Made by a program: the position numbers and the translations under genes
The notes under the pieces: model-generated
What the model was told of the DNA's origin: nothing
Databases searched by the model: none
What the model saw: the letters and a program-made list of their open reading frames with translations, nothing else
In this document: positions 2,795 to 16,563 of the stretch, piece by piece
How the letters are laid out: each line of letters opens with the position of its first letter
Position numbering within the stretch: the first letter of the stretch is position 1
IMG/VR virus record: IMGVR_UViG_3300022936_000194
Coordinates: 1-34,386 of that record
Reading direction: 5' to 3' (one strand)
Source of the DNA: a virus
Taxonomy: Duplodnaviria; Caudoviricetes
Length of the DNA: 34,386 nucleotides

Positions 2795-2850
2795 TAGGAC
2801 AGGTAAAAAAAGGCTGTCCTAAGGGGTTGTTTTAAACTGTAATATATTTG
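2795..2850 (+). promoter_or_regulatory. Inverted TAGGACAG-N11-CTGTCCTA pair plus promoter for the 154-aa gene
   Basis: TAGGACAG 2795-2802 and CTGTCCTA 2814-2821; TATATTTG at 2843, 28 nt after the TGTCC start at 2815. Confidence 0.65.
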
Positions 2851-2912: not shown

Positions 2913-3377
2913 ATGGCTGTAGCACCCCTTATCTCGGTTTCTTTTCCTGTAAAGGCACATGTTCGTAAATACCTGCAAAGACAGTATGGGAGTGCCCATA
3001 TTGCTACAAAAACCACTATTCTGGGCATGCTTGTTTTGGGGAGCCTTGAGAAAACTTATGAAAAACCGGATAAGAAACTGCCTGCTTTTTTTTCTTACAG
3101 TGTTTTGGTACCGCAAGGCTATCTTAACAGGGTGGGTGCTACCCTGCCGCGTAACACGCAGCAGCACCTGGGCGAGCTGTGCACACACCTTTTTAACATG
3201 GCACTGTATGATCATCTGGATGCCGTGGCATGGGGTGGGGGGCAGGTGTACCCGGAACTGCGAAACTTTTTAGAGCGCTACGGTATTAATGAGGATGATA
3301 TGAAGGTAGAAAGTCTGTACAGAGCATACTCCAGGCACTGCAAAAAGAAGGAAATTTTCTATCCGGCGGTAAAATAA
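2913..3377 (+). CDS. Hypothetical protein, candidate DNA-binding late-gene regulator
   Basis: 154 aa. N-terminal strand-helix VSFPVKAHVRKYL and C-terminal helical, basic LRNFLERYGINEDDMKVESLYRAYSRHCKKK. First gene at the divergent late promoters. Confidence 0.6.
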   Translation: MAVAPLISVSFPVKAHVRKYLQRQYGSAHIATKTTILGMLVLGSLEKTYEKPDKKLPAFFSYSVLVPQGYLNRVGATLPRNTQQHLGELCTHLFNMALYDHLDAVAWGGGQVYPELRNFLERYGINEDDMKVESLYRAYSRHCKKKEIFYPAVK

Positions 3378-3442
3378 TGTTAAAATATCGGTTAACCCGC
3401 GTCATTAAAGGCGTAGCGGTGGGACACAATCGTAAAAATAAA
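3372..3442 (+). repeat. Copy 1 of a duplicated intergenic element flanking the 75-aa gene
   Basis: AAATAATGTTAAAAT ... GGACACAATCGTAAAAATAAA, matching 3669-3739. Confidence 0.75.
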
Positions 3443-3446
3443 ATTT

Positions 3447-3674
3447 ATGAAAATTGAAGGCTTTGAACATGTGGATTTACCGGACACAGGAAAAAGTAAC
3501 ACTGAGATTTTATTTTCTTTGGGTGTGCACCCTGAGCAAATAGGATCGGCCGTACCAAATTATCATGTGCCACATCATATTAAAGCCGCGGCATGGCTGG
3601 AAGTGGCCAATAGCATTGATGAGTTTAAAAGGCAGTTTTGGGAAAATCAATTTCAGATAAGCTACAGGAAATAA
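3447..3674 (+). CDS. 75-aa protein homologous to two permuted segments of the phage portal
   Basis: Residues 11-37 match portal 355-381 (12/27 identical, ungapped) and residues 43-73 match portal 244-274 (15/31 identical, ungapped). AT-rich initiation region. Confidence 0.8.
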   Translation: MKIEGFEHVDLPDTGKSNTEILFSLGVHPEQIGSAVPNYHVPHHIKAAAWLEVANSIDEFKRQFWENQFQISYRK

Positions 3675-3739
3675 TGTTAAAATCTTTGTCAAACCTTATT
3701 ATCATTGGCCGCGCGATCGGACACATTCGTAAAAATAAA
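3669..3739 (+). repeat. Copy 2 of the duplicated intergenic element
   Basis: AAATAATGTTAAAAT ... GGACACATTCGTAAAAATAAA. Confidence 0.75.
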
Positions 3740-3749
3740 TTATGCACTT

Positions 3750-4220
3750 ATGGTTTTTAATATAGAAGAGCAGCTGGGCGGTTTTGCATCGGTAGAGTTA
3801 TTCCTGATTTCTGAAACGGCCGACTGGCCACTGGTGGTAACTGATGCCAATGCCGGCAGTATTACACTTAACCCGGAGGTTAATGATGTAGACGGCACCA
3901 TTGAACCGGATAGCATAAACATAAGCGATGACCCTAAAACTGATGCAAGCGGACAGATTTGGCCAATAGATATACGTTACCGCTTCCTGGCACGCAACGC
4001 GGCCATGGAGCAGCTGCTGGAGCAGTATGCTAACAAGCCCTGCATTGTGCGTGGTTGTGGTAACGATGGCAACCGCAAGCAATGGGGAACTGACCAGGAA
4101 CCGCTGTACATGACCTACAAAAATATGTATGGTACCAAACGGCAGGATAGCCACGGTATTGACATTGCCATAAAAGGCGACCTGAGCAGCAGGCCGGTTT
4201 ACTTTATTGCAAATGAATAG
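3750..4220 (+). CDS. Putative virion protein, distant paralog of the tail-tube-like protein at 8281-8832
   Basis: Probable start ATG 3750 (MVFNIEEQLGG). Shared pattern EQLGG/EPVGG, CIVRGCGNDGNRKQWGT/YIVLAEEAGSGRLRQLGS and RPVYF/PAPIY. Confidence 0.65.
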   Translation: MVFNIEEQLGGFASVELFLISETADWPLVVTDANAGSITLNPEVNDVDGTIEPDSINISDDPKTDASGQIWPIDIRYRFLARNAAMEQLLEQYANKPCIVRGCGNDGNRKQWGTDQEPLYMTYKNMYGTKRQDSHGIDIAIKGDLSSRPVYFIANE

Positions 4221-4388: not shown

Positions 4389-4658
4389 ATGAAAAGAATT
4401 ATTGCTTTATTTTGCTTCTTGTTTATTTCGCTATTTGCAGATGCGAGAACGTGCGGTAAAGGGTGTGTTGGCACGCAAACTTCGACGATGATTGTAGCAA
4501 CAGGCTACGGCTGGCAGGTACCTAATAATGTAGCGTGTACGGGTCGTCCGCCTCAAGGTACACGTGTAAGTTATGCTGTGGCTGTACGAAACAGATCTAA
4601 CGGGGTTACCGTAATAGTTGAAACTGGAACGTGTAACCCAGATGACATGGACTGTTAA
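4389..4658 (+). CDS. Small secreted Cys-rich protein (moron)
   Basis: Sec signal MKRIIALFCFLFISLFADA with an AxA cleavage site and five Cys in the ~70-aa mature part. Preceded by a very AT-rich ~170-bp spacer. Confidence 0.75.
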   Translation: MKRIIALFCFLFISLFADARTCGKGCVGTQTSTMIVATGYGWQVPNNVACTGRPPQGTRVSYAVAVRNRSNGVTVIVETGTCNPDDMDC

Positions 4659-4668
4659 ATCAAAAAAT

Positions 4669-5325
4669 ATGAAAAACTTATTTATTAGTGCTTTATTAAT
4701 TAGCACACTATTATCATGTTCTGATGCAACAAATGAGACCAAGACAAATACTGTCGAGCCTGAAGCTATAGTTCCCGCACATCATTCCAATTCTTCTGCT
4801 GCACGTACTTATGCTCCAGGTTATCAAACACAATTGGCTTATATTACAGATGATGGCGTAGGTGTAACAACTTTTGAAGTTGATAATGATATACAAGCAA
4901 AGATCGAGGATCCTACTATTTCATGGACAACCTTTGATGCCATGTATACTTCATCCCTGGGAAGCTCAGTTAAACAGGATTTGGGGTATATTATACTTGG
5001 TCAAAAAAACCTTATTGGGATTGTGAATAATGATGTGAGCAACACAGCGAATGTGATAACCCTAAAAAAGTGGGTTGATAGACTAATAACTGAAAAATAT
5101 TATGGTTACACCCTACTTAATAGTGCTTTAAGGGCTATAAAACCGGTTGACGGTGCTTATGCAACATCACGAGCCGGTATGATTTCAACTTACGCTGTTA
5201 ACGATACATTTCATCAAAATACAATTAGCGGTGGAATAACCCCAACAGGATGGTTAACACAAGCAAAGATGAATTTGATTGTTGACAATTATAGCAAGCT
5301 TAGCCAGATACAGGCTTTACAATAG
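4669..5325 (+). CDS. Lipoprotein of unknown function (moron)
   Basis: Probable start 4669, MKNLFISALLISTLLS-C (lipobox-like). Followed by a terminator. Confidence 0.8.
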   Translation: MKNLFISALLISTLLSCSDATNETKTNTVEPEAIVPAHHSNSSAARTYAPGYQTQLAYITDDGVGVTTFEVDNDIQAKIEDPTISWTTFDAMYTSSLGSSVKQDLGYIILGQKNLIGIVNNDVSNTANVITLKKWVDRLITEKYYGYTLLNSALRAIKPVDGAYATSRAGMISTYAVNDTFHQNTISGGITPTGWLTQAKMNLIVDNYSKLSQIQALQ

Positions 5326-5345: not shown

Positions 5346-5370
5346 AACCCGCCATTGTGCGGGTTTTTTT
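5346..5370 (+). terminator. Intrinsic terminator
   Basis: AACCCGC-CATTGT-GCGGGTT followed by a T-tract. Confidence 0.85.
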
Positions 5371-9744: not shown

Positions 9745-10836
9745 ATGAATTTTAATTACAGGTGGTCGCTAAAAGATGCAGTTTTTACTAAAGACAAAGG
9801 TAAAGTGTTTAGCTGCTTTGCATGCGGTGGCGGCTCTACTATGGGCTACAAGCTCGCAGGGTTTGACGTTGTAGGCATTAACGAAATAGACCCGCGTATG
9901 GCAAAGCTGTATGTGGCCAACCATAAGCCCAAACATATATTTGTTGAAGGGATACAAAGCTTTAAACTGCGCAATGATCTGCCGGCAGAGTTATACAATT
10001 TAGATATACTGGATGGCTCCCCTCCCTGCAGCTCATTTTCTATGTCCGGGAACAGAGAATCTGACTGGGGCAAAGAAAAGAAGTTTACCGAGGGCCAGGC
10101 GTCGCAGGTTCTTGACACGCTGTTTTTTGATTTTATAGACCTGGCCGAAAAGCTGCAGCCGAAAGTAGTAGTGGCTGAGAACGTATCTGGCATACTTAAA
10201 GGCAATGCCCGAAACTATGTGCGCAAAATAATTGTGGCGTTTGACAAAGCCGGTTACCTGGTAAAAGAGTTTGAACTTAATAGCTCACAAATGGAGGTGC
10301 CACAGCGCCGGGAGCGCGTTTTCTTTGTTGCCATACGTAAAGATCTGGCAGAGCTGCTGCCTAAACCTTTTGGGCTACTATTCTGTGACTTTCCACATTT
10401 AAACATGAAGTTTGGCCGCACGGAAATCCCCTTTGCAGATATCAGGACAAAGGGGCTTAACGATGCGCCCTGGAGTGATCACGACCAAAGGATATGGGAC
10501 AGGCGTGTTATAGGCGACAGGAAATACTCTGATGTACTGGTGCGCACTGAAAACAGGATGTCAAATTTTAACAGCCAATTTGTCTATGCCAATGAAGCCA
10601 TCAGGACTATGGCAGCGTCGGAGGCAAGTAAAATGACCTTGTTTGATGAGCCCAGGCGAATGAACTCGACTGAAATGATCTACGCACAATCATTCCCTAC
10701 GGACTACGATTTTGGCAGTGATAAATGCAGTAAAATCCAGTATGTGCTGGGCATGAGCGTGCCGCCCGTTATGATGGCACACATAGCTGCCAGGCTTTAT
10801 AAAGAATGGCAGCCAATTTTTGAAAGTAGCCTATAG
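9745..10836 (+). CDS. DNA (cytosine-5)-methyltransferase, orphan
   Basis: Motif I variant FACGGG, catalytic GSPPC, ENV, QRRERVFF and C-terminal QSFP/SVPP motifs. Confidence 0.95.
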   Translation: MNFNYRWSLKDAVFTKDKGKVFSCFACGGGSTMGYKLAGFDVVGINEIDPRMAKLYVANHKPKHIFVEGIQSFKLRNDLPAELYNLDILDGSPPCSSFSMSGNRESDWGKEKKFTEGQASQVLDTLFFDFIDLAEKLQPKVVVAENVSGILKGNARNYVRKIIVAFDKAGYLVKEFELNSSQMEVPQRRERVFFVAIRKDLAELLPKPFGLLFCDFPHLNMKFGRTEIPFADIRTKGLNDAPWSDHDQRIWDRRVIGDRKYSDVLVRTENRMSNFNSQFVYANEAIRTMAASEASKMTLFDEPRRMNSTEMIYAQSFPTDYDFGSDKCSKIQYVLGMSVPPVMMAHIAARLYKEWQPIFESSL

Positions 10837-10859
10837 CTACAATAATTTTTAATTTTAAT

Positions 10860-11666
10860 ATGACCAAGATTGCAACGCCCAAAGGAAGGCTTAAAACTCC
10901 GATTTCTTATTACGGTGGTAAGCAGAGCATGCTTAAACACATTTTACCAATAATCCCGGAACATAAAACGTATGCCGAAATATTCTTTGGCGGCGGTGCG
11001 GTGTTTTGGGCAAAGCAGCCGGCAGAGGCTGAAATTATAAACGACTATAACGGCATGGTGGTTAACTTTTATGAACAGCTAAAGCTGAATTATGATGCCC
11101 TGAAGGCGGCTATTGATGCCACGCCTTACAGCAGGCAGACCTACCAAAAAGCAATGGTAGTTTATGAGCATCCGTACATTTATACTCCACTGGTTAAAGC
11201 CTGGGCGTTTTGGATAGGTACCGTACAGGGCTTTAGTAACAAGATAGGCAGCTGGAGGGCGAGCAACCCCACATCTAAAGAAGTATTGATGTGTGAGAAT
11301 AAAAAGCTGCTGATCACTCCGGAACTAAGCGCACGCCTGCGCCATGTGCAAATTGAATGTGTTGATGCCATAAGGCTTATTGAGCGCCTGGACAGCCCGG
11401 ATACTTTCTTTTACCTGGACCCGCCTTATGTGGATAGTGACCAGGGCCACTATGGCGGTTACACTCAGGAACATTTTAATAGCTTACTGGATGCGCTGAC
11501 CAGGATAAAAGGCAAATTCCTTTTGAGCAGCTACCCTAACGCGGTATTAGACCGGTACCGATCTGAACATGGGTGGGACAATGACGATAAGAACATGCAT
11601 TTATCGGTATCACAGAACAACCGCCGCAAAACTGAATGCCTTACCGCTAATTACCCTATTAGATAA
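10860..11666 (+). CDS. Dam/D12-class N6-adenine DNA methyltransferase, orphan
   Basis: YYGGK, FFGGGAV, IINDYN and catalytic DPPY. Confidence 0.95.
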   Translation: MTKIATPKGRLKTPISYYGGKQSMLKHILPIIPEHKTYAEIFFGGGAVFWAKQPAEAEIINDYNGMVVNFYEQLKLNYDALKAAIDATPYSRQTYQKAMVVYEHPYIYTPLVKAWAFWIGTVQGFSNKIGSWRASNPTSKEVLMCENKKLLITPELSARLRHVQIECVDAIRLIERLDSPDTFFYLDPPYVDSDQGHYGGYTQEHFNSLLDALTRIKGKFLLSSYPNAVLDRYRSEHGWDNDDKNMHLSVSQNNRRKTECLTANYPIR

Positions 11667-14860: not shown

Positions 14861-15205
14861 ATGGAAAATGGCACGATAACACTTTCAGAGGCATTAGAAA
14901 TAATGAGACGGCATGATGCTTACGGCAACCTCATACATTTTAATATCGCTTTCCGGACGTTTAGCGCTACCACAAAAAAGGGCGGCAAGCTAAAAGAAAT
15001 TGATGGCGCAATTTATATGTACCCGGCTAATCCGGATGCAGATAAGCCTATCAATATTTACAATCTGCTCGATCCCGTACTGACTGCCAAGAACCCGAAC
15101 CACTTTGAGAACCGCACCCGCAACATACAGCTGCCAAATGGCGACATCCGCAAAGTGAACATTGATTTCATAATCTCAATTAACGACCAAAAAGTTATTT
15201 ATTAA
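14861..15205 (+). CDS. Hypothetical protein preceding the portal
   Basis: 114 aa, KNPNHFENRTRNI segment, TAATG coupling to the portal gene. Confidence 0.75.
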   Translation: MENGTITLSEALEIMRRHDAYGNLIHFNIAFRTFSATTKKGGKLKEIDGAIYMYPANPDADKPINIYNLLDPVLTAKNPNHFENRTRNIQLPNGDIRKVNIDFIISINDQKVIY

Positions 15206-16563
15206 TGAACGATACAATATTTGTAGGCGACTTCGCTTTGAGTTCGTTTAAGGGGGGCGGCTCTGTCTATGCCTTTACCAATACCACCGCTAAGGGCGAG
15301 GATACCGTTACCACACTGCAGGTAGATACCAAAGACAAAGTGGGTACCATAGCCTCATGGGGTACCGCGAACGATTACCCTCAGGATATCCTGAAGCGCG
15401 TAAAACTTAACGGCGCTGCCACCAGTGCGCTCCGCCTGCTGCGCAAAGCACATTACGGCAATGGCCTTGTGCTAATGACGCACGGTGTTACCGAAGACGG
15501 TAAACATGATCATAAGATCGTGCCTACAGAAAGCCAGCCGGTCATAAAAGATTTCTTTAATAAATCCCAGATGAACCGTTTCTGGAAAGAAACAATAACC
15601 GACCTCGAGTATTTTTCCATTGCGTTCCCGGAGTACATCCTGTCGAATGACTATACCACAATAAACAGGGTTAAACGCCAAAAAGCTGCCTGGTGCCGCT
15701 TTGAGGTAATGAACGAAAAGAGCGGCCTGATTGAGAATGTTTACATCTCAGAGAAATTTGGTAAGACCAGCGTATCTACAGACTCTATTTACTGCGCCAC
15801 CGTGCCCGTTATAGATAGCTACTGGAGTGCTGAAGAGGTAAAAGAATATTGCCGGGTTAACAAAATACACAATTTTGTCCGTCCCGTTTTTTACCCGCTT
15901 ATAGATGAGGCTTACTACCCTGAAGCGGAATGGCACAGCATTACAAAATCGGGATGGCTCGATGTGGCCAACTCTATCCCGGAATATAAAAACAACCTGT
16001 TTAAAAACCAGGTATCGATAAAGTATCTCATCGAAATTGACGAGCGCTACTTCCAACAAATTTATTTAGATCAGTGGATAAAATTCAATCCTGAAGAGCG
16101 CAAGGCCATACGTAAAGCAGTAATCGATTCTATAAACGATCACTTATCAGGCAATGCAAATGCCGGCAAGTCTATCCAGTCAATGAAATTGGTAGATGCA
16201 AAAGGCGAAACCATTTCGGCCATCACTATAACCACCATCGATGACAAATTTAAAGATGGTTCCTACCTGCCTGAAGCCGAAGCGGCCAACTCCGAAATAT
16301 TATTTGCTATTGGTGTAGACCCCTCACTGGTGGGCGCAGGTATACCCGGTGGCAAACTTGGTGCCGGTTCCGGCTCCGATAAGAGTGCGGCCTTTAATAT
16401 CCTTTCAGCGCTCTTTAAAACAAACCGCGAAACTACACTGGAGATTTTCGATTTCATACGCGATTACAACGGGTGGGATGCAACTATTACCGGCGCTTTC
16501 GAAAATACCATACTAACCACCCTGGATAAAAACCCAACCGGGCAGGAAAAAGTTACCAACTAA
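15205..16563 (+). CDS. Portal protein
   Basis: 452 aa downstream of terL. WG..NDYP, HYGNG, NAGKS and EILFAIGVDPSLVG motifs resemble PBSX/P2-type portals. Confidence 0.8.
   Translation: MNDTIFVGDFALSSFKGGGSVYAFTNTTAKGEDTVTTLQVDTKDKVGTIASWGTANDYPQDILKRVKLNGAATSALRLLRKAHYGNGLVLMTHGVTEDGKHDHKIVPTESQPVIKDFFNKSQMNRFWKETITDLEYFSIAFPEYILSNDYTTINRVKRQKAAWCRFEVMNEKSGLIENVYISEKFGKTSVSTDSIYCATVPVIDSYWSAEEVKEYCRVNKIHNFVRPVFYPLIDEAYYPEAEWHSITKSGWLDVANSIPEYKNNLFKNQVSIKYLIEIDERYFQQIYLDQWIKFNPEERKAIRKAVIDSINDHLSGNANAGKSIQSMKLVDAKGETISAITITTIDDKFKDGSYLPEAEAANSEILFAIGVDPSLVGAGIPGGKLGAGSGSDKSAAFNILSALFKTNRETTLEIFDFIRDYNGWDATITGAFENTILTTLDKNPTGQEKVTN

Follow-up and report, generated by a model that had tools for sequence, protein, structure and literature searches.

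What is the role of a short gene made of rearranged pieces of a portal protein, in a phage that also encodes a full portal? The question arises from a 75-aa open reading frame (orf), here called the mini, in a 34,386-base virus record; this whole stretch of DNA is referred to as the window. The record is classed as a provirus with a completeness of 67%, and contains tape measure, head protease, large terminase, holin, endolysin, and ParB-like genes. Two adjoining DNA methyltransferase genes (9745–11666) lie within the head-to-terminase region. A conserved neighbor gene of the mini is present in four bacterial records (three Flavobacterium and one Flavobacteriaceae) and the named relatives of the window portal come from Flavobacterium, so the host is likely Flavobacterium. 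The nearest isolate, in a comparison of the portal alone, is Polaribacter phage Leef_1 (Helgolandviridae), at 48%.

Features of the window discussed in the text (position 1 is the first base of the window).
Feature	Coordinates	Strand	Basis
Promoter-like TGTCC-N23-TAnnTTTG site ahead of the mini operon	2815..2850	+	Motif scan
Conserved 154-aa gene upstream of the slot	2913..3377	+	No Pfam, PHROG or NCBIfam match
Leader copy 1, 71 nt, intergenic; contains the stop of the upstream gene and an A/T-rich run before the mini ATG	3372..3442	+	Direct repeat; alignment with relatives
Mini-gene, 75 aa, two portal pieces in swapped order	3447..3674	+	BLASTP; homolog P0002
First block, mini 11–37 = portal 355–381, predicted return stem helix and start of next loop	3477..3557	+	12/27; hhalign E 7.5e-8; secondary structure
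Second block, mini 39–73 = portal 238–274, predicted outgoing stem helix up to first clip strand	3561..3665	+	Residues 43–73, 15/31; diverse profile extends to Tyr39
Leader copy 2, 71 nt; contains the mini stop, lies before the downstream gene	3669..3739	+	Direct repeat; alignment with relatives
Conserved 156-aa gene downstream of the slot	3750..4220	+	Conserved across loci
Full portal gene, 452 aa, behind the large terminase; matching segments 15916–16026 and 16267–16347	15205..16563	+	Fold match; 48% to the Leef_1 portal

The mini was compared by BLASTP with the product of 15205–16563, and exactly two ungapped blocks were recovered, in swapped order: mini 43–73 with portal 244–274 (15/31 identical, E 1e-8) and mini 11–37 with portal 355–381 (12/27, E 8e-8). 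The ungapped scores of these blocks are 84 and 74; 500 shuffles of the mini have a mean of 27.9 and a maximum of 45, and the next-best real diagonal between the two proteins scores 25. The composition from two portal blocks proposed in the earlier note thus stands. The same note placed a 5-aa linker between the blocks, and a short joint is indeed present, but most of it is portal sequence: when a profile built from 21 diverse portals is used, the second block reaches back, across a 2-residue gap, to mini Tyr39 (portal Tyr238), so that the foreign linker is about 1 residue and the pieces are fused almost directly. About 62 of the 75 residues are portal-derived. Residues 3–11 are identical at 6 of 9 positions to residues 198–206 of one distant portal (L193), near the diagonal of the second block, a likeness that is within the shuffle range; the N-terminus of the mini may also be portal-derived. 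The mini lacks a complete wing-stem-clip-crown chain, since its 75 residues cover only portal 238–274 and 355–381, and it is encoded outside the packaging module, where the full portal occupies the expected place.

That the product of 15205–16563 is a portal is borne out by its structural model (pLDDT 76.9), which matches the GTA portal with a Foldseek E-value of 7e-9 and a VIA Z of 19.7 (rmsd 4.8, 321 aligned); phage portals rank below. The model is laid out as helices 242–267, strand 274–278, helices 281–314, strands 328–344, helices 355–376, a loop, and helices 390–422. Portal stems, as described in the accessible portion of PMC12847820, consist of a pair of long helices, with a clip made up of three strands and one helix between them. 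By the order of the predicted elements, the two mini blocks would be these two stem helices with the clip omitted, as had been supposed. The end of the return helix would lie near the start of the outgoing helix in a fold of this kind, so a join in swapped order would make geometric sense. The model of the mini itself is poor (pLDDT 56), with helices at 18–24, 43–56 and 58–73 and no Foldseek match at E≤0.001.

The portal of this phage, to which the earlier note matched the blocks, need not be their source. The mini is identical to its own portal at 27 of the 58 aligned positions, and the best among 192 portals reaches 28; over the same positions the own portal shares a median of 43/58 with the portal family. 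Portals of the broad clade to which the phage belongs give the blocks their highest scores, and distant portals give lower ones. Because the mini is no closer to its own portal than to the family, the donor would have been a portal from within that clade, either old or foreign.

Several comparisons argue that the mini protein has been under selection. Between the mini and its own portal the three codon positions are identical in 36, 41 and 20 of the 58 codons. Of the 27 identical residues, 17 are encoded by different codons, among them the Ser AGC/TCT pair cited earlier as a sign of such selection; pS is 0.74–0.84 and pN 0.32–0.36. In neutral runs that drifted from the own portal down to 27/58 identity, an average of 41/58 third positions remained identical (never fewer than 24 in 4000 open runs) and 13.9 of 20 core hydrophobics would be expected to persist, compared with the 19 that are kept (P 0.003). 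Part of the codon pattern would be accounted for by a foreign donor, since these simulations start at the own portal. One close protein was found, P0002, which is an intact homolog in the same swapped order (75 aa, 76% identity, ungapped). Its 18 differences are more conservative than those of neutral runs (P 0.013), and among 25 hydrophobic residues there is no change to a polar one (P 0.03). Aromatic retention is not significant by itself (P 0.26), and columns conserved among portals are not spared by the differences between P0001 and P0002 (Fisher p 0.76 and 0.36). Pro259, present in 21/21 diverse portals, is replaced in both the mini and P0002 with the core kept, which points to some change after capture. 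Loss of Gly250 was considered as a second such change and rejected, as distant portals also lack it. Saturated synonymous sites, the retained core and the conservative changes in P0002 support, with moderate confidence and from one homolog compared as protein, the view that the mini is kept by protein-level selection.

The mini occupies a slot between two conserved genes and is bounded by two copies of a leader that are 75% identical (direct repeat D3; blastn 78 nt, E 5e-8). Both copies include the stop of the preceding gene and an A/T-rich run before the start that follows. Twenty-five loci were examined, and both flanking genes are present in 24. The slot is empty in 19 of the 24, with the flanking genes 71–90 nt apart, and contains an insert in five. 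In each of the four closest relatives (flanks at least 81% alike) the leader is duplicated, and the insert is different in each; a contig of run X6 spans the slot with 210 other letters. The G+C content of the mini is 0.40, compared with 0.47 and 0.49 for its neighbors. Moron genes of temperate phages are accessory genes inserted between conserved neighbors, with variable content and lower G+C. The mini resembles them in all of these respects, the slot holding five different inserts between conserved neighbors as in accessory genes, and differs from them in its duplicated-leader bounds, in the origin of its content in a core structural gene, and in that consensus scans found neither a promoter of its own ahead of it nor a terminator behind the orf. 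A second variable slot (4389–5325) contains a lipoprotein-like orf together with an orf of 89 aa that includes cysteine and begins hydrophobically, and is followed by a terminator (5346–5365); G001, G002 and L074 carry other genes there.

A candidate promoter lies ahead of the upstream conserved gene. Three TGTCC-N23-TAnnTTTG sites are present in the window (2815, 5408 and 23943), whereas 100 base shuffles give a mean of 0.38 and a maximum of 2, and the same arrangement precedes the protease/capsid operon; CTGTCCTATT is also found upstream of the portal and other structural blocks. The TAnnTTTG element at 2815–2850 is one that we take to be a Bacteroidota promoter box, and the site is likely a late promoter. 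A CTGTCCTA motif is repeated ahead of structural gene blocks, at window positions 2815, 5408, 8899, 11696, 14821, 17517 and 23943 on the plus strand and 2736 and 2801 on the minus strand; from its position, we would guess that the product of the 154-aa gene is an activator reading this motif. By a consensus scan the leader lacks a TAnnTTTG box, and six leader copies show no conserved RNA fold (z −0.96 to 1.87). The leader does carry a late-promoter-like motif in reverse orientation (window 3426 and 3723, minus strand), and in 24 of the 25 loci this stands immediately before the downstream gene. The motif may serve as a site for an activator, or as a promoter directed leftward, antisense to the slot.

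Other portal pieces are present in the slot of close relatives. G002, whose portal is 98% identical, has an 80-aa orf there (L039:3687–3928, plus strand), the C-terminal part of which corresponds to portal 245–274 (hhalign E 4.9e-7). Its last nine codons are shared with the mini (24/27 bases), which points to a crossover near window position 3645. In G001 (portal 96% identical) the slot contains a 50-aa orf (L040:3740–3892, plus strand) matching portal 355–378 (E 2e-4), and an 85-aa orf 0.9 kb downstream (L040:4772–5029, plus strand) matches the whole clip, portal 273–349 (E 2.5e-10); this clip orf and the window mini together tile portal 238–381. Each of five minis (that of the window, P0002, P0127, P0136 and P0137) scores above 300 of 300 shuffles against a profile of 192 portals, and all five map inside portal 227–381. 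Six other slot inserts do not exceed their shuffles, and one insert each in L074 and L052 is not portal-like. Non-portal accessory genes are located in the same or the next slot at L074:738–902, L052:4753–5004 and L047:2482–3494. A search of 29 records and genomes with the portal alignment found a match in 24, with an extra piece in a short frame only in G001 and G002. The small orfs of the window, G001, G002, L073 and L074 gave no convincing piece match to capsid, terminase or adaptor, and other matches to large proteins are orthologs. On these alignments, every excerpt derives from the portal stem-clip-stem region and is restricted to one small clade.

Broader searches agree with a narrow distribution. 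A phmmer search of 1.84 billion representatives returned five rows: the mini, three repeat proteins that seem spurious, and one full portal. A profile search of short proteins returned 11, comprising two minis, P0127, and eight C-terminal portal fragments on short contigs. P0137 recovered only itself, A1 had no match among viral contigs, and no further copy was found in the additional contigs examined; the mini has no family match in PHROGs, Pfam, NCBIfam or Atlas. Three samples of 401 genomes (genus, family and phylum of G039) yielded 7, 12 and 5 genomes with a match, all of them portals except four weak matches, and no stand-alone copy. One weak match is a 66-aa frame that runs antisense to a long gene. 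The sole non-portal match of the mini profile in the genus sample is inside Avs4 (L153, residues 555–617, 19/66 identical); it was discarded, its E-value of 0.004 per genome being about chance in 401 genomes, and the stretch is matched by neither P0002 nor the portal profile.

With portal pieces known only from the window, G001, G002 and one protein record, and with none standing alone in the genome samples, the minis might be short-lived recombination by-products of unsampled portals, or might have a function that has nothing to do with portal likeness. The duplicated leader provides start context and a stop, so such pieces would be read as orfs, and at the distance of P0002 a frame stays open by chance in 23% of neutral runs. 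This account is set against the retention of length and frame in P0002 with its conservative changes, the replacement of Pro259 in both copies with the core kept, and several captures of one portal region and of no other; we judge it unlikely. The mini is better regarded as a real gene of undescribed design and narrow distribution, likely selected.

As to function, the reading that we tentatively prefer, while granting it somewhat less than an even chance, is that the mini is expressed late and serves as a decoy, binding a portal sensor of the host without activating it. A portal segment would have been copied, with residue 381 at its end joined to residue 238 at its start; this junction is itself observed, and a tandem duplication of the stem-clip-stem segment, or its excision as a circle, could have produced it. 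The piece would have entered the slot between the two conserved genes with the second leader copy that is seen to give it start context and a stop. Purifying selection, for which there is statistical support, would then have held the hydrophobic core, with surface residues and synonymous sites drifting. Transcription from the late-type promoter at 2815–2850 would be simultaneous with that of the portal, and the product would bind unproductively to a stem-recognizing sensor such as Avs4 or Avs11, occupying it without triggering it as the real portal is made.

Such sensors have been described. According to the accessible portion of PMC12847820, Avs4 binds portal monomers at the stem and clip, also contacts the wing, and in binding monomers excludes ring formation, and SpbK docks on the portal clip. 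The available part of 10.1101/2025.11.14.688446 likewise has Avs4 reading portal monomers. Avs11 and RAZR are further sensors of portals, and Avs proteins are reported to enclose a fold in its entirety (10.64898/2026.01.04.697583 and PMC13017515, in the parts available). A decoy fits best because the copied region is where published sensors bind, is swapped fast in a variable slot, and is likely expressed late. Variable content and a slot that is usually empty are as expected for conflict genes, and with late co-expression poisoning of the phage's own assembly would be costly and a decoy useful. Against a decoy, Avs4 is rare in the likely host genus, where it is over the cut-off in two of 251 genomes, with weaker near-full-length matches in six more. 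Given that the mini lacks the clip and wing contacted by Avs4, and that whole folds are enveloped, 75 residues may be too few, or may trigger the sensor instead of blocking it.

A different function, which we think improbable, is that of a dominant-negative subunit that is taken into the portal ring of a related phage, arriving by co-infection or superinfection, and stalls assembly. Stem helices contribute to subunit contacts (PMC12847820, in the portion available), the hydrophobic face of the mini is kept, its blocks are no nearer to its own portal than to others, and the record is a provirus. However, such a poison requires expression in the lysogen, and no promoter was found directly ahead of the mini; the operon promoter looks late, so the product would meet its own portal. 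Sister phages, moreover, hold quite different portal pieces.

The likely late co-expression would also suit a modulator of the phage's own portal assembly, a transient monomer partner that sets the timing of ring formation or shields monomers from sensors. Since Avs4, as described in the part of PMC12847820 cited above, binds monomers to the exclusion of rings, shielding of monomers would evade Avs4 too. An assembly factor is, however, hard to reconcile with a slot that is empty in 19 of 24 loci and with different pieces in phages whose portals are 96–98% identical, and we give this proposal only a slim chance. Least probable, and by our estimate very unlikely, is that the mini retains a moonlighting portal surface that inhibits a host enzyme such as RelA/SpoT: the T7 portal inhibits RelA and SpoT, with binding strengthened by clip removal and abolished by stem removal, but an intact ring and charged surfaces are required (PMC13483052, in the portion available), whereas the mini keeps hydrophobic positions and not charged ones.

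Under the preferred decoy reading the sensors Avs4, Avs11, SpbK and RAZR are the proposed targets, and the mini copies the stem/clip region that Avs4 and SpbK bind according to the partial accounts cited above. Like the portals of tailed phages (GTA 6te8/6toa, HK97 8cez, Leef_1), the mini has two predicted stem segments and a hydrophobic core. It differs from them in size (75 versus 452 aa), in the absence of wing, clip and crown, in the reversed order, in the loss of Pro259, and in its location in a variable slot 12 kb from the packaging genes. Nip (directed against SpbK), the anti-Avs proteins ORF55 and ORF83, and the antitoxin and DNA mimics are likewise products of accessory phage genes that blunt defence, some by mimicry; Nip binds the effector domain, and no copy or excerpt of a trigger protein is present among the anti-Avs and mimic proteins in the available parts of the 2026 review PMC13728456 and of EVADES (10.1101/2025.06.06.658234), whereas the mini is a rearranged trigger excerpt. 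The earlier note knew of no description of such a protein, and none was met in the family libraries or in a full-text literature search, which covered few subscription papers and no supplements (where the EVADES tables might bear) and in which no title or abstract opening mentions portal-fragment genes. We found no published description of this gene design, a swapped portal stem pair in a mini-gene.

The slot as a whole could be a cassette that takes up rearranged portal excerpts (the permuted stem pair, single stems and the clip), refines them and exchanges them for one another as decoys against fold-sensing receptors, and trigger-derived antagonists would then be a class of counter-defence; we offer this as a possibility a little less probable than its opposite. 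The success of portal sensors lies in their reliance on a fold that a phage cannot easily alter. If the minis poison portal rings instead, they would be natural leads for peptide inhibitors of portal assembly. If the decoy reading is true, there is an alternative means of escape, in which the portal is kept and the sensor is fed a non-activating copy. The natural set of permuted stem pair, single stems and clip provides probes for the portal surface that each sensor needs, and the same set tests whether sensor binding is separable from activation.
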